Part shown: one piece after another, positions 3,806-64,000 of the stretch
Numbering within the stretch: the stretch's first letter is position 1
Layout of the letters: every line of letters starts with the position of its first letter
Assembly (NCBI GenBank): GCA_046563655.1
Contig: CM102283.1
Span: 7,068,001 to 7,132,000, forward strand
DNA length: 64,000 nt
Direction of reading: 5' to 3'
DNA from: Yuukianura sp. NJ FZ-2021
Lineage: Eukaryota
Translations under genes and position numbers: made by a program
The notes under the pieces: model-generated
Told to the model about the DNA's origin: nothing
The model's database searches: none
What the model saw: only the letters and a program-made list of their open reading frames with translations

Positions 3806-3905
3806 CAGTGTTGTTCACGAAAAACTAGACACCAACTAACTCAAAAGTTTGTTGATTTTGAATATTATGGGGGGTGATGAGTACCAAATTCAAAGAACAG
3901 CCCTG
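3806..3905. mobile_element. Small Tc1/mariner-like MITE remnant (100 bp)
   Basis: Left end CAGTGTTGTTC vs reverse complement of right end CAGGGCTGTTC (9/11); TA on both flanks (3804-3805, 3906-3907). Confidence 0.5.
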
Positions 3906-6126
3906 TAGAAGTTGAGAGTTTAATTAAATGCACGGCACGGCGGGAATCAGGAATGCATGTAATGGCTCCTGGGTAGAAGTTTCCGTATTTTATTTTAATT
4001 TGTATGTTGTTAATAGCAAGGTTGCGAAAATTTGCAACTTAAGCTTCTTTCGGATATTTTTTGTTGGGATAAAATTCCTGAGGATTTGACCTATTTTTGT
4101 TTTTGAGAATTGTTGAGTTTTTGGCCTTGGTTTTGAGTGAAAAAGGAAAAAAAACTGGTGAAATGTGGAGCAAAGAAGATGTTTGAGGAGGCGGAAGATG
4201 ATAATGAATAATTATTAAATTCAGAATTAAAATATGGGCTAATATTCTTTCCATGCATGGAGATGCGGTAATGGTTTTTTTACAGGTAGGAAAAAATGAA
4301 TTATTGAACAAGATGGAGATTTGCGGTGAATTTAAATTGATTTTGAGTAAAGTTTGTGTGAATGGATTGGTGCTGCAGGGACTTTGATCGTGATTGATAG
4401 ACAGTAATTTCAGCCTACAGACAATTTTTTGCACCGTGAAATTTGAAGGATCCTCTTCATCTCTTTTGATTACCTATTTCGTATTTTGATTTGATGCAAT
4501 TTGACTTTGAATTTTTGAATGCGCCAAAAGTTTTGCTCTGTACAAGCACCAATGACCATGACCAAATGGGATTTTTGCGGATGTTGTGTCAAATTTTTTA
4601 TTTGAAACAATCAACTTCTCGGGAAATACGATTGGTCGAGCGGAATTAAAATGTTAACTCGAATAACTTTTTTTTTTCTCATTTAGTTTTTCGGAAAATG
4701 CTTCTCGGTTGTGTTAGTTTAAGTTTGGATTTGGCTTTTTTTAACAAAGGAGATGCCAAGACGGAAGAAAAGTTTGAATTTGAAAAGAGACATGTAGACG
4801 ATGTGAAAGAAAGAAAAGATAAAAGGGCGTTAAACTTTTACTTTTTGTTTTTGGAGGCAAAGTTTTGTAGTTTGTGGGTATTTTTTTCTTGACTTGTTAC
4901 TTCAGAGAATGAAAAATCTTCCGGCTTGAGGCTTTTTGTTCCAGCCAAGTCAAATGAGTCAGAAAAATATCTTAACTTTTGTTTTCGGGGAAATGAAATC
5001 AAAAGTAAGTTTTCCAGAAGTACCGAAAGTTTTTACGAGGAAAATAGATACAAGTTTTGAGAAAACAATTATGGGGAGAAAAATGTTGCAATGTGTGTAT
5101 GGCTAATTTCACTTAATACTTGGTAAGAAGTCGTTTGCTCCTGGTTGAAAATTGAAGTGTTGTAAGAGTAAAGAACGTCATTTGAATTTTAAATTTTCAA
5201 AATGTTAACTTTGAATTTGAAAGTGGTAGAATTTCTGGTGAAGAAGTCGTGGTGCGCGTGGCATGTGTTATGGTCTCTTGAAGATTTACGTTCTATTTCT
5301 ATGCATTTCAATGCAATCTTGCAAATCTCCTTCCGCTTAGGTTTGAATGCTAAACTACAAGAATAAGGTTAAGATTTAGTGGCTAGACTAAAGTTACAAG
5401 CATAAAATCACGTGCTTGTGGGAAGTGTTTTATGTTACGCACTTCTGGGTATTTTTCATTTTTACTCTATAGATGATTTTTGTTTGTGAACTTAATGTTT
5501 GACACCCTAATGTTATGTATTTGGAGCAGAGCGAGTGTTGCGTTTTGCCATTTTTGGTTCCTTATGTTCTACATAGTCTATGTTTATGTGCCTTTTGTTT
5601 TGTGTAAGTTGAGACGTTTGTTACATTTAACCAAAATTGACAATTTGAGTGTCGCGTTTTGAACAGCCTGGGAGTCACAGGAGTCAGCAAAGTGACGAAA
5701 TTAAGATTAATGTGGGCGTATGGCTTTGATTTTTGTTTTCTTTGTTCTGGTTCTGGTGTCATAAACTTTTGTTATGAAATTACAATTGTAACATAATTCT
5801 ATTTACGAAGGCTGTTTTTGGCAAGATATGTAAATTTAGTTTTTTGAAGATGCTGTGCTGATGCATGAGTTATATGAGTTCGTTGTACGTGTTTTCTGTG
5901 AAAACTCGGAGGTCATTACCAAAGTGAGTCATGGCTCACTGCGTTTGCTCAATGCTCAGTCATGGGATACCAAAATGATGAGAGTTCGACTTGTTAAGCG
6001 TTGAGTCGTCAATTTTAGGCTAACTGAAACAAGTGATTTTGATTGTTGACAAATGCTAACGTGATGAAATTTGTAATTTTTGAAGTCTAAGTTCTAAAAT
6101 TGGCTCTTTTGTTTTTGTTTTTGCAG

Positions 6127-9100
6127 GACCAGTATGAGAATGTGTCTCAACATACACAGAAGGGGATTGAGTTCCTGGAAAGATATGGACATTTCCTGAG
6201 AGACAGAGCGGCCATTGAAACGGAGTATGCAGGGAAACTGAGGTACTAAAAAGATGACAAAATTTTAAAATTTTGTGATTTTAAAAAGTGATTTAAATGG
6301 ATGTTGATGTTTTTTGAGTTTTTGTGAGATGAAGAATTGCTTGCGGCGGCGGCATGGCATAAACGACAGGTTGGAATGGACTTGAAGGACGAGTAAAGTA
6401 GAGTACTTGCAGCAGGAAATGGAAGATGAATGAGAGTATTGAAAGTGGATCTTCAGTGAAACAAAACAAGTGGAAGAGGGAACATTTGAATGCATCTTCA
6501 TCACTTTGTTCCTCTATGTACAGTGTGTAGAAATGTAACATGGAGATACATTTGTGAGGAAGATGACAAGAATTGGACAGGGATGATGGTAGTGGTGACA
6601 AGAGGAAGAGCCTCTTCCTGTTCCCCTTCAAAAACGAAGTGGTTTCACACGTGTAATGCAGATACTCCACTTAAAATGGTTCAAAAAGTGCTTAAAGTAT
6701 TGAATTTTCACTTGTACTGCATCTCTGCGTCCTGCCGAGTACTCTACTGCTACTTGTTCTTCTGTCTCGTCCATTCTGACTATGAGCAACATGCAACCAC
6801 CGTAGTTTCATTCAGAAAAATCAAAAAACATGACTAGATTATGTTTAAACGATGGCGGATTGTTGTTGAGTTTTTGAAAACTGAAGTTTTGTTTTGTGTT
6901 TTAGGAAATTGGTGAAGACGTATCTGCCGAAGAAGAAGGAAGAAGAAGATTTTCAGTATGTTTTTGCAAATGTCGAAAGTTTTTGTGTAAATCGCTTCGC
7001 TTGTTGCTTCTTGGCTGGAACCTCAAACTGAAACATGATGATGCTGGCTAATTTGTAGAACGTTTATCTAAAACTTTTTTTAGCAGTCACAGTTCACTTG
7101 CTAAACGGATCTTCACAACGAAGCATCTCAGTTGTTTTGAATTGTCGGCAAGATTGGAATATTCTTGTATCTTGTTCCTTGTTGCTCATAATGTTGGTCA
7201 CGTCACGTAACATGTGAATATGGAAAGATCTTATGCGAAATTGTTTTAGTATTCAAAAGAGTTGAGGCTATGGGTGTGTTCTGAAGCAATGATTATTGGC
7301 TGGCATGATCTTGTATGAGACTTCAAGACACTCTCGTGAACAGTAACGGACTTTGAGCTTGAAGATTGTGAAGCTTATGGTGCTTATGCTTAGTAATTGA
7401 TCGTCGATGGGCTACAGAATGAAGGATGAAACAAACACCCACTTTAAGTTGCTGTTCTATTATGGTGTCCAAATCTTTTGTTGTGGATGTTGACATTTTG
7501 GGCGGTGTAATCACTGGGCGGAGACGTTTGAAGACTAACGGCGGTAGATGTGCTAATGCTCAACGTTTCAATTAAATTGTTTAAAAGTTGCAAGAATTAT
7601 AAACAAAAGGGAAATATTGCATATGCTTTTTATGCTTTTAGCTGAATGAGTTGAAATTTTGAAGTTATGAATGCAATTTTTGACAACGGTGTTTGCCTTT
7701 GCCGCCTAACTATAAACAAAATGTCTTTTTCGAAGATTGGATTATTTATGTAATCCCGTTGTGTTTATTGCGTTTGTTTTACAGATTTACTACATGCAAG
7801 GCTTTCAAGGAAATGCTCAATGAATTGAACGACTTGGCGGGTAAGAAAAAAAGATGAAATACGTTTTCTGTTGTTTCCGCCTTGTTTTATCACTTTTTAC
7901 GATTAATGGATGTGGTTTGCCGTAAACTTGTGGCGAAAATTTTTTGTTTGAAATTATATTTTTAAAGTTGACATTTCTTGTTTTGCAGGTCAGCACGAAG
8001 TTGTAGCAGAGTCCCTCGTATCCAATGTAATTAAAGACATCAATATTAAAGTTCGTGAATTCAAAGATGAGAAAAAGAAGCATTTGGCAGACGGAGCTCG
8101 TCACCAAGCTAATTTGACAAATCAGTTGGCAAATCTTGATCGTTCCAAAAAGAATTACGAAAAGGCGTTTCGGGAGTCTGAAAAAGCTTATGAAGCGTTT
8201 CAAAGAGCCGACGCTGATTTTAATCTCTCCAGAGCAGAAGTTGAGAAAACAAGGCTTCAGTCGTTGTACAAATCTCAACAGTGCGATGATAGCAAAAAGG
8301 AATATGCCAATCAGGTAACAGACACTGTAAAATTTGGCGTGAAAATACAAATGCTAATGAAGTTTGGTTTTGCAGTTGGACAAAGCGAACGAGTTACAAA
8401 ATGGTTACTACAAGACTCTCATGCCTTCCGTATTTCAAGGCCTACAAGACATGGATGAAAAACGAACGAAATACTTTAGAAACTACCTTATTCAGGCGAC
8501 GGAAGCCGAGAAAAACGTTTACCCCATTTTGACTACTTGTTTAGATGGGATTTTGAGAGCTGCTTCAGAAATCAATGAACCCCTTGTAAGTTTTTGATTG
8601 ATTTTTGCAAGAATTTGCAGTTTTTAGTAATGATGCTTTTGGTTCTGTTTTGAAATCACTTTTTTTTTTGGTTTTTAGGACTGTCAACAGGTGATTGAAA
8701 GATTCAAATCTGGATTTCAACCGCCAGAGGATATCCCATTTGAAGATCTAACTGCCATCAAGTCTGGAGAAGCTCCACCGCCTCAAACGAACGGGCATGC
8801 GAACATGATAGTGAGGGCAGACACGCATGTCCTCACTTACAAAGGAACAATTTCTTCTGGAAAGTTGAAAAAACGAGCCGGGATTTTTGGAATTTTCGGA
8901 ACCAACAAGGTATCAAGTGCATTCTAACTTCCAGGGCCCCGCCCTTGTCCTGGCGCCTGCAAGTAATAAAATGTTTGGTTTGTTTTTGTAGCCGAGTGGA
9001 ACAGAAGGGCGTGACGACTACAGCGAACTTCCTCCGAATCAGCGACGAAAGAAATTGCAACAGAAGATAGACGAGTACTCTTCAAAAATTCAAACTGAAA

Positions 9101-39893: not shown

Positions 39894-41018
39894 TGCCCGT
39901 ATACATAATGACGGTTCACCCGTAACCTACGGATCAGGATTTGGTGAGACCGATCCGGGGGTCAGGATCACACTAATCCGTGAACGGTATACATAATATA
40001 ATCTTGAGCGGTGGATTTGTAAATCCGGTTCACCTGAACGTGATCATCGGATTACTCATTTTTACATGCCACATTTAAATACTTCAACAACAATGTATTA
40101 TGTTGATTAAAAATGTGACAAGTTTAATGCTCCTTTTATTTTCAGGTGGCAAAGTTTTCAAACTTTCTATAACACAACACCATTTTTGTTGTGTTTTATT
40201 AAAGTAATTAACGAAATAGTTAATGATTCAATTAATTTCTGAACAAAATAGGAAACTAATGGGACAAAATGCGGCCATGCTGTGCATATACTGCGCAAGC
40301 ACTGCGCAAGTACTGCGCAAGCACTAGGCACTGCGCAAGCACTGCGCACTGCGCAAGTACTGCGCAAGCACTGCGCACTGCGCAAGTACTGCGCACTGCG
40401 CAAGTACTGCGCAAGCACTGCGCACTGCGCACTGCGCAAGTACTGCGCAAGCACTGCGCACTGCGCAAGTACTGCGCAAGTACTGCGCACTGCGCAAGTA
40501 CTGCGCACTGCGCAAGTACTGCGCAAGCACTGCGCAAGTACTGCGCAAGCACTGCGCAAGCACTGCGCACTGCGCAAGTACTGCTGCGCACTGCGCAAGT
40601 ACTGCGCAAGCACCGCGCACTGCGCAAGAAGTTGAAATTTATATAAAAACTTTAGTTCTATAAATTCTAAAAGTTTTTTCTGACATTTATAACGCAAACT
40701 CCTTAATAAAACTGAACGCTTAACTCGTGGGAAAAGAATATACTAAACAAAAATTAAAATAATTCCAGTTGAATCAAGTGGTGAACCTACCCCTATACCA
40801 GGGTCACGAATTTTGATCCCGATCATAGTGATCCGGTTTACTTTTTTGTATTATGTATACGAATATAACCCTGAGCGAGGGATCAAACAAATTTTTGATC
40901 CGAGGTTTACGTGAGCGGGTCACCGATGACCTCGAGACTCATTATGTATAGGGATCAGGGTGATCGGTTCAACTTTTCATGATCGGATCACCGTGATCCG
41001 GCATTATGTATACGAGCA
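39894..41018. mobile_element. Non-autonomous DNA transposon with 3-bp TSD (PIF/Harbinger-like), 1125 bp, with an internal satellite
   Basis: 26-bp TIR TGCCCGTATACATAATGACGGTTCAC vs reverse complement of right end TGCTCGTATACATAATGCCGGATCAC (23/26). CTA on both flanks (39891-39893, 41019-41021). Extra subterminal (G)TATACATAAT copies at ~39987 (+) and ~40850, ~40940 (-). No transposase ORF. The superfamily call rests on TSD length only. Confidence 0.8.
40290..40628. repeat. Irregular tandem array of ACTGCGCAAGC / ACTGCGCAAGT / ACTGCGC units (35 units)
   Basis: Parsed directly from the sequence; every intact unit contains, or creates with the next unit, the palindrome TGCGCA. Confidence 0.97.
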
Positions 41019-43504: not shown

Positions 43505-45081
43505 ATGATATACCGTGAGGGTCCGCTCCTGTTGTAAGAAACACTTTCAATTGCACCCATTATTAAGTTATTATATTTATATATTATATTTTTGGAACAT
43601 TATATTAATATTTTTCTTTTCTTATTATAGTGCACAGGATCGTTTAGGGACATGGATTCCAATAACGTTAGACTCCATGGTAGAAGCCGTGATTATCGTT
43701 ACAATTTGTATCCTCATCATCATCACAAATGTCATCATCATCGCTGCATTCATCACTTTCCCTGGTAAGTTCAAAATTTTTTAAAAATTAAATTAAACAT
43801 AAGACTTTGTTCAAAAACCGAAAAATTAGGCTTTTTGAACATTTTGAAAATGAGTATTATTAGATAATTTGTGCTAAACGCGGCAAGACAGGATGATTGA
43901 TTCAAATTACAGGTGAAAGCAGTGGTGAAGGGGAGTGGATAGAAATGTTAGCGTGAAAGATAAGCGTGTCACGCGATGTAAAAATTGAATTTCCCGCTGC
44001 TAATGTTTTTCATTTTTTTAAATGTAGGTCAGCGGGAAGTGTTTACGTACTACTGCCTAACCCTCGCCGTAGCTGATTTGCTTGCTGGCGTTGTAGTTGT
44101 TCCCTTGTCGGTTGTTCCGACGCTCGTACGCGAATGGGTTTACTACGAATGGGTTTGTAAGGCCTCGGCGTATCTCAGCAACGTCCTCTGGATTGCTTCC
44201 ATGATGACTCTCATGTGGATGAGCGTCGACAGGTACAAAAAAAACTCAAAATTTTAAATTTTCAAAGAAGTTCCCGTCGAAATCCTAAAATTTTAAACTT
44301 GATTAGGTACATTGCCATTCGGAAACCAGTGAAGTATGAAACGATTCAAACCAGGACGCGAGTGCAGTGCTGGGTGGCATGTTCCTGGATTGCAGCGCTG
44401 ACGCTCTGCTGTCCACCACTTCTGGGCTTTCAGGGAGCCGTCTATGACAAAGACGCCTCCATTTGTCTCTTAGGCTGGAACGTCATGCCAGCCTATGCCG
44501 CTACACTGTCGTCACTCCTTCTCGGTAAGGTCGAAGGTCAAGGTCAAAGGTCAAATGAAACTGAAATTAGTCGAAAAATCTTAAACTCAGGTCCGACTAT
44601 TACGACAATGATTTACAACTACGTTGTGATCTTCAGCGCCATGAAGCGCTTGAAAACGGACTTACCGGGACTGGACAAAGAGTATGCGTCGGCGCTGACT
44701 GAAACGCTGGACAATCCTGCCCATGTCACGATCTTCATCCTCCTCGTCTTCTTCTGGATCTCATGGCTTCCATTCCTCATCATCAACTTTTTTGAGTACA
44801 TTGTCGAATGGAAAATTCCGGTGAGAACCCTACAAAAACCAATTTCAAATCAGCAAGTTTTCAAAATTTCAACTTTTTCAAAAATTTTAAAATTCCTGAC
44901 TTGTTCCTAGGTACCACATCTCCATTTCTCCGTATTCTGGTTGGGTCTAAGCAACTCCTTCTGGAAACTTGTGATCTACGTCCTTGTCAATCGGAACTTC
45001 CGCTTCCAATTGCGCATCTTCTGTCTCTCCATTTGTTGTCGAACAAAGAGTCGACGTCTCATTCGTCGTTCCAGCGATTGA
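43505..45081 (+). CDS. Orphan class A GPCR, GPR21/GPR52-like
   Basis: Exons 43505-43533, 43631-43764 (TM1), 44028-44232 (LAVADLLAG...MSVDR), 44308-44524 (YIAIRKPVKY), 44592-44820 (FWISWLPF), 44911-45081 (TM7 WLGLSNSFWKLVIY). DRY is present; NPxxY is non-canonical. Confidence 0.9.
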
Positions 45082-46369
45082 GTCTAAGCGTAATCGCTTT
45101 TCTATCATCAGCATCAACTTAACATATTGAGGCCGAACCTGCTCTAACTGCGCCTGCGCATAGTCACTACTCAAACGTACCTCAAAAGCAATGTGCTCAA
45201 CAACATTTCATCATCGTATCACCAAAAAAGAATGTTACAAACAGTATTAAATCATGTAGCAGAGTTCCTCGAATTCAAGCAACTATGCTAAAACATTACA
45301 TATGTTCTGGAGCGCTCAGAAAATCGCTGAACGCTGAATTCTAATTTCAGCGTTGTTGTTAACGTGAGAAGGTCCGTCGAAAACCTTTCCAAAAATATCC
45401 TCAATTGAATCCGGCCCAAAAACGTTAAGAATTACAAGTTTCAAAAACAAATTTAAAACAGAAGTCCATTACATCAAAAAAAAGTTTTCAAACAATTCAA
45501 ACTTTTTTGGTTCGTTTCGTTCCCCGAAAAAAACGAAACAAATTCAAAATCAAAATTGAAAAAATATCTCCTTCCTTTGTAATAAAATGGAAAGAGCTTA
45601 AAAAAGGAAAATAAGAGTTTATTAGTTGATTTTTCAGAAGAAAAAATAACTACGGTAATATCAGTTTTGCGTTCCCAAGTTCAAATCAGTGTAACAAATG
45701 TAAACTGTAGAAATTATTGTTTATAAAAAACTGTGTACGTAATAATATGTTGAGGAAAATGTAGTGTAGCAAAAAATATTCTTAGTATTGAATGTTAAAT
45801 TGCGTAGAGCTCAATGAAAAAAAAATAAGTGAACAGGTCAATATTAAAAATCAACTATGCAACGAAGTACAGTCAAGAAAAATATCAACCTGGATATCAC
45901 GGTATTCAAAATGCCAAGAAAGTTAATAAATTAATGTTTAGAATGTTAGATTTAGGCAGATAATGAAGTGGAAAACTAAAATAAACTAATTGTGATGAGC
46001 GTTTTCGTAAAAAATTTCCAGTGTTTATTTTCAAAAAATTCCAACGGATTCCACAAAGAATGCTGAATTACCTTAATTTTCTTCGTTTTGTTCAACTTTT
46101 TTTTTTTTCGAGAAACAGTTTTTCAAAATTTTTCAAACTGTTTCAGAATAAGGTTTGGTAAAAGCTAGCTTCTTTTCTTGCTGTGTTTTCTTTGCAAACG
46201 TTTCAATTTTTACCCATTCCGCTTCATATTCGGGCGTCGTCATATTAAAAATTCGTTCATATTCTTCAGCATAATCAGCGGAGTCATATCTAAAAACAAG
46301 AATTCATCAGTTTTTTTCAAAAATCATTGCACCGTTTTTCAAAACTTTTCAAAAGTCTTTGTTAAAAAC

Positions 46370-47389
46370 TTACAGATACATCGAAACAACGAGTCCAATG
46401 ATTTTGTCGAAGGCAGCTTTGTAAGGTCCGATTTCGGCTTGTGTCCATTGACACAATACTGGAATGAGTTCGTAGATGAGCCAGAATATTGTTACACCGA
46501 TATTTTCGAATCGTTTATCGTCAATATCCGCCACAACAATGTTTGTCACCTTTGCCTTCTGTTGTGTTCCATGACTCAAAGCATAAGTGTAACGCCCCTT
46601 CTTGTTGCCCGATTGGCCAGTCGACTTTTGGCCAACGTCCTCTGGAGGGATCAGAGTCTGTGGAGTCGACGCAATTCCGGAGTCTACCAAACTGTTTCCA
46701 TTAGGTTCAGTCAAATTCTGGCTCCTTTTCCCGCGATGTTTGGTTTGCGTGTTTTTGCGGACTTTACGGGCTTTGAAGAACGCTCGACGCTTCTTCCTTC
46801 GCTTCATCATTGGAAATACTTCTGTGGTGAAGTTTTGATCTGGAAGGACTTTCTTGTAACAAGCCATGAGTGGAGGAACGGCTGCTTTGATTATGACCTT
46901 GTCTTGCCCAGTACCGCGAATGCCACCGCGACGTCCAACGACTGGAAAGCTTTTGAGCAGAATATAGTGGATGATGACTTCGACTCCCCTGAGGAAACGT
47001 TGAGAAAACTTGGCATTGGTAGTTACGTTGAAAACGGAGAACATGCTTCGAACCATTGCTCCATAAGGGTACCAAATCTCGTTGTTGACCCAGTAGTACT
47101 CCAAAGCTTGTTCCATTTGAGTTTCACTCAAGTGGGTTATCCAGTTCCCAATTTCCAGCATGTCAGTGTCGTCAATGTAAGCTTTACCTCGCCATCCGTC
47201 GTACTCTGAAACTGGTGCTGCTGGAGGAGCAGGATAAACGACACGCCAAACATCTGAACCAAAAAAATGGACAAAAACGCAAATCAAGTGAGTTTCGGGT
47301 TTGTTTTTATTAGAAACAAAAGTAAAATGACAAAACTACTCACGAAAAATTAAGGCGACGAGGGCTATTTGACGTGATGATGAGAACAT
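46370..47389 (-). CDS. Uncharacterised secreted protein (~309 aa) with a central polybasic linker
   Basis: Exon 1 47389-47344 (MFSSSRQIALVALIF, donor C|GTGAGT) splices in phase to exon 2 47253-46370. Signal-peptide-like N-terminus; KRRKKRR and RGKR motifs. Confidence 0.75.
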
Positions 47390-47551: not shown

Positions 47552-48888
47552 TCATTCCTGCTTCTTAGCCGCAGCAGCGTCCAGATTGCCCATCACAGTC
47601 ATGCCAATCTTTCGAAATTCTCTGGCCTGATTACAAATGACGTAATTTTTAAAATTAAAATGTAAAAATTAAACTAATCGTAAGATGGTCGCTTACATGA
47701 ACACTGGTTGGATTTGAAATAACGATTGGTTTCCCGTCATCACAAGTTTCACTGACTTCAGGAGCGAATGGTAGTTTTCCTAGAATTCCACTTCCGTCGG
47801 GATAAGCTGCTAATACTTCCTCTGCGTGTTTGGTTGCGACAAGTGGAGCAGAATTCCCACATGATGGACAAAGAAACGATGACATGTTTAGTACAAATCC
47901 AAGAAGTGGAACTGATGTCTTCTTGAACATTTCTGCACCCTTAAGAGCGTCTTGAAGGGCTACCTTCTGAGGCGTAGTGACTATCACTGCTCCTGGACAG
48001 AGAAAAAAAGATGACAGTGTTATTGATATGTAAGTAAGCATTTCACAAGGTAATGCCAATTGTTACCATTGACTTCGACGCTTTGAGCGATTGACAATTG
48101 TGTATCTCCTGTTCCTGGCGGCATGTCAATGACCAGAAGGTCAAGCGGATCCCAGCACACACCTCGCACTAAATTTTCGATTGCTTGCATTACCATCAGT
48201 CCTCGCCAGACTACTGGAGCTTTCTCATCCACCAAGAATCCCATGGACATACTAAAAAAATGGATCAAATAAATATCAGAATCCTCCGTTTCCTATTACT
48301 ATTTACGTTTAAAGTACAAGCCGAATTTCACCATTTAACGCCGTAGTTTTGTAACGGAATCATGAGATTTTCTGAAAAACAAACTTGATTGAGTCAAATA
48401 ACAAAATCAGCACAAGGTTAAATTAAATCCTTTGTTTACTTGAGTTAATTTCTGGTTTTCCGTTCAAATTCATCATAAGCGGAAGAGACGGTCCGAAAAC
48501 GTCTGCATCTAACAAACCAATCTTCTTGTCAGGATAAGCAAGGGCCAGTCGAACCGCAAGGTTAACTGCAAAATAAAACATTTCCTTAGCATGGTAAAGG
48601 TAAAACATGAAGTTAGTAATTGTGAAATAACTATTTTTGTAATTAACCTGCAACAGTGGACTTTCCAACACCTCCTTTTCCGGATGCAACCAGAACAACG
48701 TTTTTTACTCCATCAATCGGTTTACGTTTTGGAAGACCCCGAGCCATAATCGCCTTTCTCCTTTCGTCTTCACTTGCCGATGGCGTTGTTGACATCCAAA
48801 CATTTCCAGGCTTCTTTGATGCTGCAAAATTCCAAAAGCCACAGCGTTGTTGGTATATTCGGCGATATAAGGCATTACAAACAATCAT
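47552..48888 (-). CDS. NUBPL: Iron-sulfur protein NUBPL/Ind1 (Mrp/NBP35 ATPase, mitochondrial)
   Basis: Exons ~48888-48648 (transit peptide, [12 protein letters not shown]), 48566-48440 ([11 protein letters not shown]), 48371-48332, 48251-48068 (VVWRGLMV...DMPPGTGD), 47993-47697 (VTTPQ...[11 protein letters not shown]), 47626-47552. Confidence 0.96.
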
Positions 48889-49388
48889 GTTTAAGGCTTT
48901 ACTGTTTATGTTTAAATAACAAAACCACTAAAAAGTACTAAAAGGTCAAAATAACTTGTTAGTTGTCAATTTTTCCAGCAGGATAACAAAGAATCAGCTG
49001 TGGAGAAAAGAACCGCTAACACAAATACAAATTGAGATGGGGTGACTCAGTAGATGCCGCACCACATCAACAATGACCCAAAATCCTGCTTCAGTTCTTC
49101 GGACTCGGGAGTCGGGAGTAACTGACTTTTTACTAATCTTAAACCTTATACGCTGAATTTAATTTGAATTACGTTAATTTTGCATGCGAAAACGACGGCA
49201 ATAAGATTCTGCTTGAATTGAACATTGAGCACAAACAACTAAAAGAAAGTCCAAATACTAAGCCACGACATAATCCTAAACTTTAAAAAAATGAACCGAT
49301 TGCACAATGACTCCTGTAAAGTGATGAAAAACACAAGTGGATTTCTGTTTTATTTTAGAATGAAAATTGTAAACGATTTGCTTAGGGT

Positions 49389-49819
49389 CTATCTTAATCT
49401 CCTAGCTTCTCGCTCAGACTCCAGGAGGGTGAGGATGTCTCCTTCCCGAACTGGGCCCTTTACATTCCGGATGATCTGTCGATTCTGTTCTCCCAAGAAC
49501 TCCACCTTCACCTGGGTACACTGACCCTGCGACCCAGTCCTGCCAAGGAGCTTCGTCACCTGTAAATCAACAAAACAAATCGGTCAAATCGGTCCAGGTT
49601 GATGGTATGAAATCAGTACAGAGAGATCTTTGATCCTGATCGTGGAATACATGACAACAAATTTGCAGACGCTTAAACCGGCCTTACCAACAGCTGACGA
49701 TGACCGTGACAAGACGACTAAATTGAATTCTTGTATTCCCGTCTACTGTATAGTTTTATTAAATATTTAAGTTCTAAAGTGCTTTAACTTACGCGAGCAA
49801 GAACAACTGGCTTATCCAT
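49389..49819 (-). CDS. RPS28: 40S ribosomal protein S28 (eS28)
   Basis: Exons 49819-49793 (MDKPVVLAR) and 49559-49389 ([56 protein letters not shown]). Confidence 0.98.
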
Positions 49820-54600: not shown

Positions 54601-57600
54601 CCAATGAAGAGAGTCCAGCATACGGTTCCTTGTGCATGACGAATCCAGCTTCCTTGACCTTGTCAGTAAACGACAGTGTCAACCACTGTGACTGTTTTGA
54701 CAAGTCCCTGTGGGAGACAAAAGTGGCAGGATTTGAATTACGACGACCTAGATTTGAAAATTTCTGACAGATTTTGAAAATTGGAACTTCGACACGGTAT
54801 CTTACTTGTATCCATCTCGGGAGATGAGTTCTTCCTTGAGTCTCAGTCGGTATGACTCCATCTCTGAGTCTTTTCTACAGGCAGGGTCATCTACTGCACT
54901 CTACAAGGAAAAGGAATTACTATTTGTCAGGGGTTAAATTGATTGATCCAGTTTCGATAGGCTATTCTGCACACATTTTAGATTTGACCTCTTACGGTAG
55001 AATCTTCTGCAAAAGTAGAGTTGAGGTCAGACGGAGGATCCTTCATGATCATGTCATCTTGAGATTGCATTTCTCCATTCTCTGAGATCTTCTTGGACTC
55101 GGCAGTATCATGGAACTGTCACCAGTTGAAAAAAAAAAGTTGTTGGCATTACAGTTGGTAACATTTTGGCGCGTAAAACTTGAATTTTTCATAATTTTAA
55201 AAATTTTGAGAGTGGTTTTATTACGGGTTTGAGCACTCGGGTGATAAAGTAAGTTTTCATGCCAGCAATTCTCAGCATCTCTTCACGTCTTTCACCATAT
55301 GCTGGCTCAACTTCAAACTCCCCGTTCAAAAAGCTTAAAGTTTTTTCAGAAATGTGAACTTTTCTGAAAGTTTTAGAAATTTGGAATTGGTTTTTTAGAT
55401 TTCTTAGGAGAGTTTTTTTTTTGTGTTTAGCGAATCTGTATTTTTGTTTACCCAGGCATTCCACTGCTTTCCATTTTATTTGCAAGTTCCACATCTTTAG
55501 AGTAGACATCAAATTGCCATTGACGTTGGCCCAAAACGCCCGCCAAAATGGCTCCCGTGTGAATTCCTACCCGCATGTCCACTGGAGAATTTGTGGTTTC
55601 TCGAACATATTTAATGGCTTTGACCATGGACAGGCCCATATGGACACAGAGAACGGCGTGATCTGGTCGTTCTTCTGGAGCACCACAGATACAGTAGTAA
55701 CAGTCCCCAAGGATTTTTATGCGGATTTGATGATATTTCTACGACATCAAACAGAATCTGTTTTCGCTACTTGTGAATATACGTTTTTCCAATTTGGGGG
55801 AAAAAGTTATTCCATTTTCGTGAAATATTTTCATTATTTTTTGACTTTTTCGAAGAAAATTCTTCCAATTTTCTTTCTCTTCTGAGCCTAATTTAAGATT
55901 AAAATTTTCCCGGAATTTGGAATTCAGAAGATAATGAATGCTGGATTCTGGATTCTAGCCAAAGGCAAGATTTTTTTTGGACTTACGTCGGCCAATCGAT
56001 CGAATCTGGCAAAAAGCTCATTGAGGATTTTGACAAGTTCTGAGGCTGAGTATGTTGATGAAATGGCAGTGAAACCGACAATGTCAGCATACAGAATGCT
56101 CACGTTCTCATGTCGACTCATGTAGATCTTTTTGAATTGGCCGTCAACTGCCGCTCCCAAGTCTTGCCGCATTTTGAGAGCCAAATGCTCTGGTAGAACT
56201 GACAAGAGGAGTCGTTCCTGTAAAAAAACGAAAAACGCGGATTTCAGAGTGGATTTCACTTTAATTTGAATGGGGAAAAGTGAAAACCTACCCACTTCCT
56301 ACGCTTTATACGTTCAACTTTTCAAAAAACCGTTTTTTGAGAAACGAGAAACTTAAGTGTGTACTTAAGTCTATGGATTTTGAGCTTAGTAGCTCCAGGC
56401 ACGGTGGGCCAAGGTCGATTTTGAAGATGAATTTCTAATTTGCTCAGGGAAAAAATCTTATGAAAATTTTGAATGGGTGGAAAAGTGGAGAAAGGTGAAA
56501 GTTAAAAGAACTTGACTCCGAATTTTTTTTAGATTTTTTTTTTCTAGGAAAAAAGTTTTGACTCCTGTAGGAAAATATTGGTTTTTCTTCTTCTTTTTCT
56601 TCCATCTCCGCTCTGTGTCTCTTGACTTTGGTTCGGTCGTTGTGTATATTTGAGATATTTTAAGCGCGAGAAGAAGAATCGATTTTCCAATTTTACTTGG
56701 TTTTCTTCATCTTTTGTTGTTACCTTGGTTGAGGAATGATCGACGTTTTGAAGCTTCTTTAGAATTTGCACAAGAGCGAAGGCGGGAATTTTCAGGGAGA
56801 ATGAAAATTGAACGTGATTTTGAACGAATTTGAATTTGAAGCCGTTTCGCCCCAAGGGAATTTTGGAAGTGCTAAATTTCTTTGAATTTTTTGAAAATTG
56901 ATTTTTTCTTACCTGTTCTTTAGCTTGTTCTTCAATGACGAGTTTCATTTCAAGGGATTGGCGGGTATCCAGGAAAGCACGGCGCTGTTTCTTGTCACTC
57001 AAGTAAAAGAAAAGAATTCCAAGTCCATTGGTTGTTAGGAGAAGAATTAAGTTAGCGGCCAACTGAAATGAAAGTGAAAGAGAATCTGTTAGGGGCAAGA
57101 CTAATCAAATCACGAATCCAGATTCTGGATGTAGGAATTCTGGAAAATCTAATTACTGGACAAGGGTCCAGGACGCAACACACTTAGCGTCATTTCTGTA
57201 ACTTGATTTTGGAAATGAGACTGGAACGGGAGTCGTTATCCTTGCCTGGACTTTTTGTCCTGGACAAATTCAATTTGCAAAATTTTGGAGTTGGTGAAAG
57301 TTGCAGAAATTTTGCCACTTCAGGATTTTTTGCAAAAACTAATTGAAAGTTAGCTTGAATCCTGCTAGAATTCGCATGTCGAATGCCGGAGTAGCAGAAT
57401 CAGCACTTGGGCTAAAATGGAAATTTTTCCTTAAAATTACTTTTAGACGTTAACAATTTTCAAAATTTTGGTGGGTTAAAACTACGCTGTCCTAAAAAGC
57501 GTGTTACGTTTTACATGCACATTGAGATTTTCTAATTCTGACTTTTTGTTGTTGTTTTTTTCTTGAATTTTTTTGGCTAACCTGTGGGCCTAAGAACGGC

Positions 57601-59585
57601 TCTCCCTCGGCCCGATTTGCTCGCCAAACGACAAACGCCGTGTGAAACAGCGTTATGACGACGTTGTACGCCAGCGCTGCTTTGAAGCGTAACGGAACTG
57701 TGACCCAGATGAGGAATATTTCCAGCAGTACCCAGCCTAGTCCAAGTCTCAGGGGCAGTGCGGCCTCGTCACTCCGCACGCCAATGACCAGCAGAATGTC
57801 TATTGTCCAGATGACAATGGGAAGGTGTGGGTTTCCTTTTGAAAAGCCCGGCAGAACTAGGATGAGAAGTGTGGTGAGTAGCGTGAGTCCAAGGGCAACA
57901 AAGGATACAGCTATGTAGATCATATCGTACTCTTCTGTCCTCGTACTCTGGGGGTAAGGAGCGTAGTCTTCGTTGTAGAAGATTTCAGGGTCATTGTCAC
58001 TCTCTGATTCCCGCCTTTTTCTCTGATGCTGATGCCGATTCTGATGTTCCTGATGCTGATGCTGAGTTGACCGGAGGTAGGCAGGGTAGTCCTCGTAGAA
58101 AATTTCAGAGTCACGGTGACTCTCTGATTCCCGCCTTTTTCTCTGATGCTGATACTGATTCTGATGCTGCTGATGCCGATTCTGATGCTGCTGATGCTGA
58201 TTCGGCTGTTCCTGATGCGGAGTCTGAGTTTTCTGGGGGTAGTCTTCATGGTAGAAGATTGCAAGGTCATTGTCATTGTCTGATTTCCGCTTCTTCCTCT
58301 GATGCTGCTGATGCTGATGCTGCTGAGGTGGTTGTGGGTGGGGCGGATTGGTTTGGTATGGGGCAGTACGTGTTTTGTGGAAGAAGGGCTGGTTTGAGGG
58401 GTAGTCTTGACTGGACACTGTGGGGGTACTTGAGTCATTGAGGAAGGGATGTAATTGGTGTGACATGAAGCTGGGATTGACACGGACTGAGGGAAAGTGT
58501 TTGTGTTTACGAGAAGTGCTAAGATCAGGAGCTGAAATTGGAGACTTTTCTTTGGAAAATGTGCGAAAGTGGCGCGGCATATTTTGAAGTGAGTTGGGAT
58601 GATGCTGGTGATGCTGTTCGGGAGCACCGATGCTGTCAGTAGCCTTGGGGCTATCGAATTCATGTCGAACGTCGTGTGGATTCAGGAGGTTGTGTGGACT
58701 CATCATCCGAATAGCTCTGGAGTCATCTGAGTGACCTTGACCTAGAAAGAAATATTTTGGCGCGAAAAATTTAGTTGTTTTGTCAAGTGCCGTTTCTCGT
58801 TTTTGACTGAAATTCAAGTTTTCAGTTTTAAATTGAAATTTTTGGTTCCAAGTTGACGTTTTCTGTTTAAAATTGAACTTTTTCGGTTTCGTATTGAAGT
58901 TTATCGATTTCGTGTTGAAATTTTTGAAATGTTTGTAGAAAGTAATTTTATTTTTGCCGTTTTCAAAAAGTGGGTGTCATCGCCCACGCTTTCTTAAAGC
59001 AATTTGTAACTCATCACGGATTTTTGTTTACTTACTTTCACTTTGAAATGTAAACAAGTCATTTAGTAAAGACTTCTTTTTTGGTGGGAAAAATTATGTA
59101 AATAAACTAAATCCATGAAGTGTAACAGATTTTGAAAGAAAAGCACTTTGGGAATGAATTTTGAACGTAATGAATGAACTTTTGCTTCTAGTCATACTTA
59201 TTTTTGCTCTACTTTTTCGAACATGCTGGAAGACTTTTCAAATATTTGCTCTTTCATGAATTATTAAATTTGATTGTTTTTTGTTCTTACCAGTGTTAGG
59301 AAGCGGGTGTGGTGGATACGGTGAATTTCGATGAACAACCCAACAAGCATGTATTAAAATTTGTGTAATTGCGTAGACGAGTAGAGCGTAGAGGAAAATT
59401 CTAAAAAGTTCTAGTCGTTTTCTATTTGAAGAGTGAAGGTGATACAATGCTTCAATTTCAGGATCACTAAATTTGTGAGTTATAAATGGAAAGACGCCTC
59501 TTCGACTCCTAGTCGCTGGAGTTATTTTTACTACACTCAAACTTGACCCGCATCTCACTGGGAGTGGACTTCCTTCGGGATCCAT
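51680..59585 (-). CDS. ADCY3: Membrane adenylyl cyclase, type 3-like
   Basis: About 19 exons from 59585-59291, 58741-57582, 57062-56913, 56217-55987 ([11 protein letters not shown]...[31 protein letters not shown]), 55737-55452 ([10 protein letters not shown]...MRVGIHTG...WQFDVYS) through the C2 exons ([83 protein letters not shown]) to TAA at 51682-51680. Confidence 0.95.
54025..54398. mobile_element. Tc1/mariner (pogo/Tc2-like) MITE in an AC3 intron (374 bp)
   Basis: TIR CCGTATTTTCTCGCGTATAAGATGC vs reverse complement of right end CAGTATTTTCTCGCCTATAAGACGC (22/25). TA TSD at 54023-54024 and 54399-54400; GCGTCTTAT occurs three times near the ends. Confidence 0.85.
57950..58330 (-). repeat. 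Three-copy coding repeat plus CAG/CAT-rich tracts in AC3 exon 2
   Basis: [23 protein letters not shown] / [22 protein letters not shown] / [23 protein letters not shown]; at DNA level CACTCTCTGATTCCCGCCTTTTTCTCTGATGCTGAT recurs 120 bp apart with one mismatch. Confidence 0.9.
58805..58930. repeat. Degenerate ~21-bp-period T-rich intronic repeat
   Basis: ttcaagtttt, ttgaaatttt, ttgacgtttt, ttgaactttt, ttgaagttta, ttgaaatttt at ~21-bp spacing. Confidence 0.65.
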
Positions 59586-62500
59586 TTTTAGAAAAAATCA
59601 AAATCAAAATTTTGAAATTTTGAACTTTCTCTAAAATGTTGCTCAAGTTGAATTTGTTGTGATTTTGTTCAAGTTAATTCGTCCCAGTCGTCGAAAATTT
59701 TCTGCACGCAACGACCAACGTTTTAATTGTTATTACACTTCCGGTTTGTGTTTGAACAATTTCACTTTTTAGTGGTGGACATTGTAAATGTAGAAATTTT
59801 GAAATTTGTTTAAGTTTTTATGCAGTTTTGTGTTTGTTAGTTTGGAAGTCGAGTTGATTCAGCATATTGCTGATTTTGAATTGCGGTTTTACGATTGAAC
59901 TGTGGTAGTCACTGTCTAATTTGATGAGATTCGAGTTAATCACAACTGAGCTAAATTATGTTTAGGTTAATTAGCCTAACTTTAACTACGGTTAGGTTAG
60001 TAACCTAACGTGAAGCAGACAGAGGGTAAAGTTGTGAATAGGAATGTGAGACCGTGCTAGAGAGAAAGTGGACTTTCTCCTCCGTGCCAGAGAAGTGAAG
60101 TGAAAGGATAATTTAGGGGCCTTCGGGCTCTATCACAGCCTCCTCGGATTCTCCTTTGGTTGGTGGATTTGAGAAGCAGCGCAAGCGCAAGACGCTTCTA
60201 TAGAGTTCTAGCGCTGTTTTTTCGGAAAGCTTTTTTTGGTCGTACCGGGTAGCCAGTTACAGCAGCAGCGCTGGCTTCTATTCTGGCTACCGCTGGTGCA
60301 GCCGTAGAGACAGTAAAAGTTGGAGAGAGAGTTTATTTTGGATCAATAAAACGAGGCTCTCCCCGTATACTTTCCCTGTGTTAAGTTGTAGGAGTCCAGG
60401 ACTGTGTAGTCGTCATCAGTTTTCCAGTCTCCTGCGTTTCTGGTCATGGTCGTTCGCTTGAACTTAGATGGAGAGAAAGCAAGTCTTACGTTTGGTTCGG
60501 CGCGAAAATGAAATCCAAATCTCCCTTACTCTTTTCTTCTAACTAAAACTCCTCGTGTGCCCCCTTTGACCTTCTAGAATTCTCAAGTTTCAAGTGATTG
60601 GACGCTGGAGAGCGTCATTGGTCATCAGGGATTAGTAGATTGAATGCAATTTGGATACTTCTGGACAGTTGAGGACACTGACTGATGAGGATCATGCGAA
60701 GTTGTCACGGGGAAGTCTAAAGGTCACGGGGTCATGGAACTTTTTTCTCATTTCGTTTTTGGCGGGAGGATTTTTGGATTTGATGTGAAATGACGTCTTT
60801 TTGGAAAAGCTTGAGGGGCAAAGTGTTGAGGCAGGAGAGAAGAAAGTGGAGCTAATTTAATTGTAAATTGGATTCTGTGAAGCAGGGAATCGAGGATGCG
60901 AGACGGAGAAAGTTACTGCTAAAGACACAAACACAAGCGATGAGCTTGGTTTTACTAGGACTAAAGTTAAGTTTTATAAGAGTTATGGCTAAGGACACGC
61001 TTGGTTCAGTTGTGTTTGTTTGAAAGTTGCGGGAGAAAACAAAAGTTTTAAAAAGAAGTTCAGTCGAGGTTGTTTTGAAACAATTATTTGAAAAAAGATG
61101 GACGAAATAAGGCGAAAGCGGTTGAAAAAAGTTGAAGGCGACACTAGAAAAGAAAAGCATAAGATGGCTGAAAGTTGATTTTTGAACAGCTTTTTGAAAA
61201 TGTTGTTGAAATTTTCAAACAAGTTTAAAAAAGTTTTAATTAATTCTATTCTTGACAGGTTAACAGAACCAAGGCCATGCTGTACTTTATGTCAAAAAAG
61301 TGTTAAATGGGGCGTTGAATTTTTTGACATGTAAAAAGTGAGTTCTTTAAAAATTAGGTTAGGTTTTTGGGAAACTAAAAAATAATTGGTTTTCTCGTTG
61401 GAAATTACATGTGTGATGTAAATTTATGCCAAGATGGAGAAAGCCTGGAGAAAGTGAAAGAAAGTTGTAGTTTTTGAGTGGATTTATGTGGGTTGTAATC
61501 TATTGATTGCATGAGAAGAGAAAGCTAGTGCTCTTGTGAACCTGGATTGTGTGGAATTTTGGCTTAACGCCAAGATTTTGTGGTGCTTTCACTATTACTT
61601 TTCTGCACTTTTCGAATTTCCTCAAGCATATATACTGGTACTACGTCAAGCACATATACTGCTGATAGGAATTTTTTCAAAAATAGGAAAGCGTTCGTGT
61701 TCGAGACAATTTTTTGCTGTGAATAATTGAACGCGTGTTAGACGTTTAGAATTTGGGTTAACATCGATAGTAGCGCTTTTTGGTAGAAATTTTGGTTAGG
61801 TTTTCTGGTTTACCAAGAAGGCAGCATAACCAATGCTTAACCTCACCAAAAAAGAGGGAGAAAGTGGGAGAATTTTGTTGGATTTGGAATTGAAGGAGAA
61901 AGGTGATTCGACACATAACTTTAGTTTGGACTTGAGAGAAAACGAGGGAGCTCAAGTCTCAACTAAAGTTTTTTCAAAGTTCCCGGTTCTTTTTTTTCCG
62001 TTTCTTTGGAAGTTCCCGGGTTTAGTTTCGAGAACTTTCACTTTGAGCTGACCTTTGACTTTGGAGAGGTCTGGACAGGTAAAAGTGTTGCCATTATTTG
62101 TAGAGTAAGAATGGAATTGGACAGGGACTGATGTCGTCTGGTCATTGGTGAACGTGATTTGGGCTGGAGAAAAAGTACGAGTTGATCTCTGTCTCCAGTG
62201 GATTTTGGTTGGTCATGGTCTGTAGAAGGCTGAATAGGAAGATAGAAGTAAGCTGAGGAAGATTAGGTTGGATGTGTCTTGCAGAGAGAAGCTTTTCTGG
62301 AAGGATGTTACTTTGTTGGAGCAAGAGAAAGTGAATTTCTGAAAGCTAAAACTCGGTGTGCTTTCTATTTTGCTACAGGTTGGTTGGGTTTTGTGGGATT
62401 TTGGGAATGATTTGGATTAAATGTGGTTCGGTGAGCAGAGACGAATTTCTATTTTGGGTTTTGAATGTGCGAACTTTCGGGTTTCAAAATTGTGAAATTT

Positions 62501-62824
62501 CGGATGTGTCGGCGTTTCGCGTTTCATTTTCGTACTGACTAGACATGTTTTTAGTCAGTTTCAAAATTTTGCTCAGCATGTTGATCTTGATGAGGCAGAA
62601 ATAGAATTTTACTTTTCAAAGTTTTTGGTAAAAATAATTTGCTCGGATGACGCAAATGAATGTAGAAAATAAAAAAAAAAATTCATTTCGTGCATCAAAA
62701 GCAAACGCTTCAAATTTTGGGTAAAATCATACACTTTGGGAAAAAGGTTTTCAAAAAAGTTGCAGAGATTGATCGGTGTAGCGAAAAATTTTGAAATTTG
62801 ACATTTCGCGTTTTTTTTATAGAA

Positions 62825-63767
62825 ATGGCTGAACAGAAGTCAATGGCATCAGAATTTCCAGACTTTTTCAATTTCTCGACCGTTCTGGATGACAACTACG
62901 TTCAGTTTCAGCAGTTCGGCTTGTTCTTTAAATCTGTGAGTCTCTTAATTGAATTACTAATTACAATTTTGGATTATTTAATTTATGTGGTCTATTTGAT
63001 GAATAATTCATTTGAAAGGGACTTTGTCAAAGTTATGGAAGTGAAAGTTCTGTCTGTTCTCGTTTAGATCGAATGGGGAGAGCCGTTTATAATTGGATTG
63101 ATTTTCTTTCACATCATGGTGACGCTGATGACATTTCTGAGTCGACGAAGAGCCGCGGCACAAGGATTTCTCTTTTTCCTTATGCGTACGTTTTGTTTTC
63201 TAAAAGTTCTGCGCAAGTATTTTGTTGGTTTAACGGAGTATGAATAATGTAACGGAAATTGTTTTATTGATTGTGCAGTGACCTTGATATTCCTGTCTGA
63301 GAAATTAAACGAAATTGCAGCAGAGAATTGGCAGTGAGTTGTTTACGAAATTTAAAATTCAGTGAAATTATGATGCATGACCAACATTTCTAAATATTTT
63401 ACGGTTTTTACGATGAACTATGATTGATGCCTTGTTTTGTTGATTACAGATTGTTTTCTCGGCATCAGTACTTTGACGAAAATGGAATGTTCATTTCCAT
63501 TGTATTTTCGCTGCCACTCCTATTCAACTGCATGATTATGGTCGTAAGTGGCACTTTATAAAAATTTAGTTTCCAGTGAAGATTGGATATTTTGATTTTG
63601 TTTTGACTGTTTTGCAGGCAAACTGGCTCATGATTTCCAGCGAACTCATGACGACTGTCCGGAAGTTCCAAATGCAGCAGCAGAGTCAGAAACGGAGAGC
63701 CAGCGCTAGTAAAAGTACTAAAACTACTAGAAGTCCTTCTACCGAGAAAAGCGTTAAGCAAGACTAA
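62825..63767 (+). CDS. TMEM18: Transmembrane protein 18
   Basis: Exons 62825-62935, 63068-63185 ([15 protein letters not shown]), 63279-63333 ([12 protein letters not shown]), 63450-63543 ([27 protein letters not shown]), 63618-63767 (basic C-terminus). Confidence 0.93.
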
Positions 63768-64000
63768 AAAACCGGAAAAGCTAAGTAGAGGTCTCCCTGG
63801 ACACAAATTTTCGTTTGTGACTTGGGATTTCAGAAAATGTTCAAAAGAAATTGAGAAATAATGGAAACGGATTCCAAAAATCCATTCCTCTTGCTAATTA
63901 ATCCCAAAGAGTAACTTTATATTTGTTAATCATAAGCCTTCTTTTTGCTTTAAACTTTAAGTGAACTTAAAAACAAAAGTTTAAAATTCCGCCTCATTTT

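Follow-up and report, generated by a model that had tools for sequence, protein, structure and literature searches.

The role of the two six-helix membrane domains of the transmembrane adenylyl cyclases (tmACs) is an acknowledged open question, a 'blind spot' (PMC12414865), and a receptor role has been proposed for them (PMC11606603, PMC4821796). Conservation among the cyclases is lowest on their extracellular faces; AC5 has structured outer loops, and the passages of that article used here describe no loop like the one reported below (PMC12414865). Nor did our literature search find, among the matches listed, any published cyclase with a comparable loop. In this work, we have analysed a 64,000-nt stretch of DNA from Yuukianura sp. 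NJ FZ-2021 (the window), which carries an Ac3-type cyclase gene on its minus strand, where all the features described below lie. In insect Ac3 proteins, which are grouped as orthologues of mammalian AC3, the longest polar stretch of the first membrane cassette is at most 33 aa (n = 107, the analysable members of the 120 best Ac3 matches, 13 having been left out because the anchor motif or a hydrophobic segment was missing), whereas in the window enzyme 287 residues separate the first two membrane helices, TM1 and TM2, and the short TM1-TM2 loop typical of Ac3 members is absent. The receptor-type cyclases of trypanosomatids, built of an N-terminal folded ectodomain and a single membrane helix, also bear a sizeable extracellular portion, but in the window enzyme this portion would be a disordered internal loop and there are 12 helices. 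The explanation we favour, and consider probable, is that this is an Ac3-type cyclase whose first outer loop, normally a few residues long, has expanded to 287 disordered ones, and that a module within it is handled in the secretory pathway as a juxtamembrane stalk.

Judged by its sequence, the gene encodes a membrane adenylyl cyclase of the arthropod Ac3 type that is complete and catalytically intact, with 12 helices. Pfam PF00211 was detected in four exon ORFs (E 4.8e-06 to 1.4e-32), so both cyclase homology domains, C1 and C2, are present. The C1 exons, placed by Pfam and tblastn at 56220-55225 (about 56220-55987, 55738-55451 and 55455-55225), match PF00211 at E 6.9e-12 and 1.4e-32, and the same two methods place the C2 exons at approximately 53091-51767. 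ADIVGFT and ILGDCYY, both C1 metal-Asp motifs, were found, together with KIKTI and a 16-residue motif in C2; we take the catalytic residues to be two metal Asp in C1 and Lys, Asp, Asn and Arg in C2. Six hydrophobic segments precede C1 in hydropathy plots (exon 1 contributes TM1, exon 2 four segments and exon 3 a single one). The second membrane cassette (54625-53167), delimited by hydropathy on ORFs, provides six more by hydropathy only, a 54-aa double block plus four others, with the hydrophobic blocks lying at about 54625-54464 (two helices), 53870-53784, 53564-53472, 53477-53400 and 53223-53167. The Pfam AC_N family gave a match of only 27 residues, at 20.6 bits against a cut-off of 30.9; no Pfam family matched exons 1 and 2, and Rfam gave no match across the whole window.

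As judged from a search with one 96-aa C1 exon, the closest named relatives are the AC3/arthropod Ac3 group: 119 of the 120 matches listed are 86–94% identical and nearly all come from insects and are named as type 3 cyclases or Ac3; one of the 120 is labelled type 8 (91%), and the one match below this range is to a type 6-like protein of a fish, with 62% identity. The tblastn alignment of insect Ac3 with the window extends from TM3-5 to C2, covering 57824-57618 in exon 2, but TM1-5 of the window enzyme are too diverged from it for word-seeded searches to find. The mammalian AC8, AC5 and AC9 structures in the PDB match the C1 exon (180, 159 and about 120 bits, respectively) but not exon 2, and a sequence search of the PDB with exon 2, comprising the loop and TM2-5, returned no match at E up to 1.

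The 5' part of the gene has a simple layout. Exon 1 (59585-59291) opens with the start codon at 59585-59583 and encodes a short cytosolic N-terminus, the 24-residue helix TM1 (about 59402-59334, by hydropathy) and 14 further codons, giving 98 aa plus one base up to a phase-1 donor (GT, 59290-59289). Intron 1 (59290-58742; 549 nt, GT...AG) contains 20–21-nt tandem repeats at 58800-58935. Exon 2 (58741-57582; 1160 nt) lies between the acceptor tttctttctAG and a phase-0 donor (GT at 57581), and when joined to exon 1 in phase 1 it gives 1455 nt, or 485 codons. Its polar part (58741-57924) runs straight into TM2-TM5 (57923-57582), TM2 starting at the ATG at 57923-57921; exon 3 (57068-56907, bounds approximate) follows with TM6 and the linker DKKQRRAF...EEQAKEQ. 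The initial annotation of this locus, which had exon 1 ending just after TM1 and joined in phase to a 1160-nt exon with some 270 polar codons before the next helix, is borne out; the number of polar codons is 272, and the layout is conserved in L001, an orthologous metagenome contig that is the nearest relative and served as our reference for comparison.

Could the polar stretch be a gene-model artefact, wholly or partly spliced out through an acceptor near TM2 or through an in-frame internal intron over the repeat block? The strand is stop-poor, as had been cautioned, there are in-frame AG sites inside the exon, and L001 has nothing that corresponds to the repeat block, all of which would suit such a reading. 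A second frame is indeed open over the repeat block (57920-58681, 253 aa), but we set it aside: stops interrupt it 3 times across the polar exon as a whole and 5 times in the L001 counterpart, and it is not conserved. By contrast, the frame used has no stop in either sequence, the other frames of the polar exon having 3 and 16 in the window and 5 and 10 in L001. Used-frame residues are identical at 72 of 111 positions between window and L001, against 19–34% identity in the other eight frame pairings, so that the 113 aligned N-terminal codons are conserved as protein in this frame only. Of the acceptors close to the start of the exon, the one at 58741 is preceded by the best pyrimidine tract, and L001 keeps its position to within one codon, whereas the internal candidates are poor. 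The weak phase-compatible AG at 57936-57935 that the initial annotation had pointed out does exist, but pyrimidines make up only 9 of the 20 bases upstream of the 57934 site; these alternative in-frame acceptors were set aside, the sequence upstream of them being conserved as protein. Repeat spacings and indels, moreover, are all multiples of three. We therefore regard an artefact as improbable, and on this evidence the long loop is probably no annotation artefact; nor is it private to this genome.

The insert is coding and under protein-level constraint, as read from the comparison with L001, because L001 keeps exon 1, the intron phase, the acceptor position and an open, protein-conserved loop. 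Exon 1 of L001 has the same 295 nt and 88% aa identity, its GT donor falls at the corresponding codon position in the same intron phase, and pN is 0.075 and pS 0.830; the L001 intron (255 nt) gives no colinear blastn match with intron 1 of the window (549 nt). The polar exon is matched at the nucleotide level over 146 nt at 74% (E 5e-21). Over the whole loop, 151 aligned codons show 60% aa identity with pN 0.252 and pS 0.888; for its N-terminal part the values are 113 codons, 65%, 0.227 and 0.850, and for TM2-5 they are 77% aa identity, pN 0.145 and pS 0.723 (we give the proportions pN and pS, not proper dN/dS, since synonymous sites between the two sequences are saturated). Every gap in the codon-based alignment is a whole codon. 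These substitution patterns show selective maintenance of the reading frame and of the loop's N-terminal part (58741-58350), whose conserved blocks include one of 14 residues and NQPFFHK. This part also holds an N-D-S sequon common to the window and L001, at 58439-58431 as read from the sequence.

The 287 residues of the loop are made up of the exon-1 tail, the codon split by the intron and the 272 exon-2 codons. No 19-residue window of the polar part exceeds a Kyte-Doolittle value of 0.06, and the first 271 exon-2 residues comprise 36 Q, 31 H, 27 S, 27 P and 21 R, with no Cys. AlphaFold2 gave block means of pLDDT of 34–48 for loop residues 1–180, without secondary structure, and a search of the ESM Atlas with the loop gave no usable match. 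The loop is thus probably a translated, cysteine-free, intrinsically disordered segment. In the tmAC family the N-terminus is cytosolic, and with this N-in topology the loop, lying between the first and the second of six hydrophobic segments, is probably extracellular or luminal; the topology rests on hydropathy and family knowledge. TM1 is preceded by basic residues, and the 30 residues before TM2 include 10 acidic and 2 basic ones.

The C-terminal part of the loop contains the three repeats that the initial annotation had described, all of them present where it had placed them. They are tandem units (58341-57963), each running from poly-HQ through RK(K/R)R and an acidic Ser/Asp stretch to IFY(x)EDY. 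The basic motifs RKKR, RKRR and RKRR are at 58298-58287, 58142-58131 and 58022-58011 (exon-2 residues 148, 200 and 240), and the IFY(x)EDY motifs at 58259-58239, 58103-58086 and 57983-57963 (residues 161, 213 and 253). At the DNA level we found three 96-nt direct repeats (58246-58341, 58090-58185 and 57970-58065), spaced by 120 and 156 nt, both multiples of three, the copies at 58246 and 58090 being 86% and 71% identical, respectively, to that at 57970-58065; within the HQ runs there are tandem periods of 6, 15, 21 and 27 nt. Unit-versus-unit pN/pS is 1.06, 0.98 and 0.56, a comparison made within the protein and over only about 15 synonymous sites. L001 has a single basic plus acidic-aromatic unit, and poly-HQ is absent from it, although two short His-containing blocks are kept. 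The triple repeat and the His/Gln runs look like recent, nearly neutral additions in this species; that the triplication and the slippage are recent is suggested by the repeat structure and the lack of conservation. As for conservation of the RKRR...IFYxEDY units in relatives, which the initial annotation had left to be checked, one unit of a basic cluster and an acidic aromatic motif is conserved, and the array of three is missing from L001.

It had also been suggested that the loop might be a His-rich ectodomain that senses metal or pH and is coupled directly to cAMP output, and the 31 His among 271 residues, which cluster in runs, speak for this idea. The runs, however, are tandem DNA repeats of 6–27 nt that are missing in L001, which retains just its two short His-containing blocks, and the more distant loops are not His-rich. 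We consider a sensor of this kind very unlikely, the least probable of the readings discussed here.

To what extent does the loop occur outside this species? Word-seeded protein searches restricted to lengths of 677–2000 aa, with the whole of exon 2 or with residues 262–386, found nothing, and in a library of 1.84 billion proteins all 12 matches were ORF fragments of exon 2; where a fragment reaches far enough upstream, the sequence that precedes TM2 is polar. In the contigs L002 and L003 an exon with TM1 is followed by an ORF with a polar stretch and TM2-5, with phase-1 donor and acceptor candidates, and long polar stretches before TM2 were found in both and in eight ORF fragments. The relatives thus have a common exon layout, exon 1 coding for the N-terminus and TM1 and exon 2 for the loop and TM2-5. 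The loop is about 130–340 residues long among the metagenome relatives, the values for L002, L003 and the ORF fragments being upper estimates (their acceptors are not fixed). TM2-5 have invariant W/G/E/F/L/I/W columns in 12 sequences. The relatives' TM2-5 are only 30–49% identical to those of the window, and the loop is still present.

What these loops have in common is a module next to the membrane: a basic cluster, often R-x-K/R-R, followed 10–30 residues on by an acidic Phe/Tyr motif that lies 12–22 residues before TM2. The acidic aromatic motif aligns in all 10 sequences compared. The basic motif at the aligned position is strict in 5 of the 10 and is therefore semi-conserved; among loops of at least 100 aa, 6 of 8 carry a strict R-x-[KR]-R, the other two having KKKRRR or KRR/KR, and the per-loop shuffle frequencies for the six motif-carrying loops range from 0.002 to 0.107. 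As far as the alignment of these sequences goes, it shows that the membrane-proximal basic plus acidic-aromatic module is kept by selection in the clade. The same observations bear on another view, in which the loop in its entirety has no function and is a disordered spacer that is tolerated and that lengthens and shortens through slippage. Its low complexity, the lack of a predicted fold, the spread in length from about 130 to 340 aa and the apparent neutrality of the units are what such a spacer would display, but pN is well under pS in the conserved part, the acidic aromatic motif is present in 10 of 10 sequences with a recurrent basic cluster, and the loop persists in relatives whose TM2-5 have diverged to 30–49% identity. 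An inert spacer thus seems to us a poor candidate for the loop as a whole.

In some membrane proteins, segments of this kind are processed: Notch is cleaved by a convertase at S1, chemokine-receptor N-termini bear sulfotyrosines, and sulfation takes place at Tyr flanked by acidic residues on luminal segments. The window has three R-x-K/R-R motifs and L001 one, and the Tyr of EDY and IFY are in an acidic context, with 10 Asp/Glu in the last 30 residues before TM2. The resemblance to the Notch and chemokine-receptor type thus consists of a multibasic R-x-K/R-R on a presumably luminal segment and a Tyr in acidic context beside a membrane helix; the difference is that the window segment is internal to a polytopic enzyme, so that a cut there would part TM1 from TM2-12. 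On these motifs, the conserved unit may be cleaved by a convertase or sulfated on Tyr. The initial annotation had gone further, suggesting that the loop may be a prohormone-like ectodomain from which a furin-type enzyme, cutting at the three RK(K/R)R sites, would free repeated peptides that are acidic and possibly sulfated. Each of the three R-x-K/R-R motifs is indeed followed by an acidic stretch ending in IFY(x)EDY, most relatives have the basic cluster and the loop is probably luminal. Several points nevertheless weigh against repeated released peptides: L001, with its single unit, could not give rise to an internal peptide, the units in the window diverge at pN/pS of about 1 (0.56–1.06), short cores excepted, the sequence between sites is mostly slippage-type HQ repeat, and cleavage would detach TM1 from the rest of the enzyme. 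We find such a prohormone improbable, and a role as a source of released peptides less likely than a stalk role for the module.

The stalk reading that we prefer can be put as a series of steps. In-frame tandem duplication would have triplicated the module in this species, and slippage of the CAG/CAT type would have padded the units into poly-HQ. The loop, facing the lumen or the cell exterior as the N-in topology of the family implies, would present the conserved module to the secretory pathway, where it may be N-glycosylated at the shared N-D-S, and possibly also cut by a convertase and Tyr-sulfated. The module would then serve as a juxtamembrane stalk, with an influence on surface delivery or on contacts between the membrane domain and a partner or ligand. 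A more speculative extension, to which we assign a low probability, is that in this clade the cyclase is a processed surface receptor: a furin-type cut and Tyr sulfation at the conserved module would leave on TM2 a sulfated acidic stalk that binds an extracellular, perhaps basic, ligand or the tethered basic stub and so gates cAMP production directly by way of the membrane domain, with the triplicated module of this species also shedding two peptides of 40 and 52 residues.

What could this loop tell us about the membrane cyclases? Should it have no function, it would be no more than a disordered insertion that the enzyme tolerates. The loop illustrates a probable route by which such a segment can grow, through in-frame tandem duplication and slippage. 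A natural Ac3 lineage with a large, presumably outward-facing loop and a conserved module would offer a way into the question of signal reception or trafficking control by the outer side of the membrane domain.

Our results show that the minus strand of the window, whose DNA is eukaryotic, encodes a membrane adenylyl cyclase in several exons between 59585 and about 51767, and they confirm the observation of a polar insert in the second exon. Exon 1 (59585-59291, minus strand) encodes 98 residues plus one base and stops 14 codons past a hydrophobic helix, where a GT follows. After an intron of 549 nt with a pyrimidine-rich acceptor, exon 2 (58741-57582, minus strand; 1160 nt) continues in phase, the two exons together giving 1455 nt or 485 codons. 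In exon 2, codons 1-272 encode polar sequence whose 19-residue hydropathy reaches at most 0.06, directly adjoined by four hydrophobic segments; by hydropathy, the sixth segment of the first cassette lies in exon 3. The remainder of the gene, outside exons 1 and 2, is intact. Four of its exon ORFs contain Pfam cyclase domains, the catalytic motifs and the second set of hydrophobic segments were found, and the alignment of insect Ac3 proteins to the window starts at the TM3-5 region and reaches the C2 C-terminus.

The initial annotation, which spliced exon 1 in phase to the 1160-nt exon, cautioned that a second frame is open and that a downstream acceptor could bypass the insert; indeed, that frame is open over 57920-58681 and an in-frame AG occurs at 57936-57935. 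Comparison with relatives served as the coding test. When 1.84 billion proteins were searched exhaustively and without a profile for matches to the exon-2 translation, 12 were found, all of them metagenome ORF fragments, and a scan of metagenome contigs yielded three loci. One of these, L001, is a close orthologue: its first exon is also 295 nt long with a GT donor at the identical codon position, its intron 1 (255 nt) ends at an acceptor at most one codon from that of the window, and its exon 2 is open, with about 152 polar residues before TM2. The exon 1, donor and acceptor positions thus support the proposed gene model. Nei-Gojobori counts between the window and L001, for which only proportions are meaningful since synonymous sites are saturated, gave pN 0.252 and pS 0.888 in the loop (151 aligned codons, 60% amino acid identity), compared with 0.075 and 0.830 in exon 1 (98 codons, 88%) and 0.145 and 0.723 in TM2-5 (116 codons, 77%). 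Neither sequence is interrupted by a stop in the used frame, whereas the remaining frames contain 3 and 16 stops in the window and 5 and 10 in L001; residues are identical at 72 of 111 positions in the used frame, compared with 19-34% for the eight alternative pairings of frames. The polar exons match by blastn (146 nt, 74%, E 5e-21), no colinear blastn match was found between the two first introns, and all gaps and repeat spacings are multiples of three. This codon constraint, together with the frame, intron and gap controls, argues strongly that the polar stretch is translated.

The long loop extends to more distant relatives. The other two loci, L002 and L003, each have an exon carrying the same N-terminal motif and TM1, and a downstream ORF with 130-150 polar residues followed by TM2-5; candidate splice donors and acceptors in phase 1 are present in both. 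In four related ORF fragments (P0005, P0008, P0011 and P0012) up to 160-340 polar residues precede TM2, lengths that are upper estimates because the acceptor positions are not fixed. In three of them (P0008, P0011 and P0012) a common block, TMTLHTYA.MLE.SH.RL.KSVFHVD.TSD.LQY, opens the polar ORF, which suggests that the loop of this sub-clade has a second conserved element. Ordinary Ac3 proteins lack the long loop: among the best 120 matches to the C1 exon, 119 had 86-94% identity and nearly all were insect proteins named adenylate cyclase type 3, and in 107 of the 120 the longest polar stretch of the first cassette was at most 33 aa (median 23), the remaining 13 being left out as they had no anchor motif or no hydrophobic segment. 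Word-seeded searches found no long annotated protein with this TM2-5 region, so the long-loop clade seems to be unrepresented in annotated proteomes.

The sequence details of the initial annotation were all found in the window: three basic motifs (RKKR, RKRR and RKRR), with His/Gln runs ahead of them and, behind each, an acidic segment that terminates in IFY(x)EDY. At the DNA level these units are three direct 96-nt repeats with spacings of 120 and 156 nt; relative to the reference copy, the other two show 86% and 71% identity. The His/Gln runs are themselves built of short tandem repeats with periods of 6 to 27 nt. With only about 15 synonymous sites, pN/pS between the units was 1.06, 0.98 and 0.56; outside short cores, they give no sign of selection. 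The loop contains no cysteine. In L001, conservation of the repeat units, proposed as a check, held for one unit and failed for the triplication: a single unit (basic cluster, Ser/Asp stretch, acidic Phe/Tyr motif) lies near the membrane, and poly-HQ is missing. On sequence comparison, both the triplication and the His/Gln runs are confined to the window. The suggested release of repeated peptides fares poorly because the repeats are not conserved in this nearest relative, as does a His-rich metal or pH sensor, because L001 lacks the sequence on which that idea rests; the evidence supports neither mechanism.

The N-terminal half of the loop has blocks common to the window and L001, which also share one N-D-S sequon. 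In an alignment of the final 60 residues before TM2 from ten sequences, an acidic aromatic motif aligned in all ten and a strict R-x-K/R-R stood at the aligned position in five. Over whole loops of at least 100 aa, a strict motif occurred once or more in six of eight, and the remaining two had KKKRRR or KRR/KR; shuffled versions of the six motif-bearing loops reached the observed count at frequencies of 0.002-0.107. Of the 30 residues that immediately precede TM2 in the window, 10 are acidic and 2 basic. Both the sequence of this basic and acidic aromatic module and its partial conservation agree with putative convertase cleavage and tyrosine sulfation.

The N-terminus of membrane adenylyl cyclases is cytosolic. 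Since the N-terminal flank of TM1 is also basic and six hydrophobic segments precede C1, the loop probably lies on the luminal or extracellular side, as initially proposed. For loop residues 1-180, AlphaFold2 with a 12-sequence alignment predicted no secondary structure, the mean pLDDT over blocks of 10 residues being 34-48; within the loop it placed helices only at the His/Gln runs, and TM2-5 received pLDDT 70-80. The loop had no match in Pfam, PDB or Atlas. The best-supported reading is that the first outer loop is lineage-specific and disordered, selection acting on its N-terminal blocks and on one juxtamembrane basic-plus-acidic-aromatic module, which was probably triplicated recently in the window species and padded by slippage.

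Several other features were observed in the window. Intron 1 of the cyclase contains tandem repeats (58800-58935; periods 20, 21 and 40 nt) that the shorter L001 intron lacks. Positive plus-strand GC skew is strong (0.14-0.35 per 2-kb window) over 1-8000 and 56000-64000, and over 56000-60000 matches the location of the cyclase's C-rich coding strand. A dense tandem repeat at 40167-40742 is open in all six frames, with ORFs of 104-191 aa made of CAVLAQ/LRSAQ-type units. Neighbouring genes are a rhodopsin-family GPCR with introns (43980-45100, plus strand; ORF 44161-44910, Pfam 7tm_1, E 4.3e-13), a NUBPL-type iron-sulfur P-loop NTPase of several exons (47655-48927, minus strand; PF10609, E 3.7e-25) and a ribosomal protein S28e exon (49389-49583, minus strand; PF01200, E 9.9e-30). 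At 46169-47335 two long ORFs overlap on opposite strands, of 346 aa (plus) and 321 aa (minus), the latter with no Pfam match found.

What could such a loop mean for the family? None of the papers listed by literature searches was relevant to a cyclase with a comparable loop or furin processing. Reviews describe the function of cyclase membrane domains as unknown and their extracellular face as the least conserved part (PMC12414865; PMC9552081), and receptor roles have been proposed for these domains (PMC11606603; PMC4821796). The chief value of the long-loop Ac3 is as a natural system for studying the outer side of the membrane domain of cyclases.
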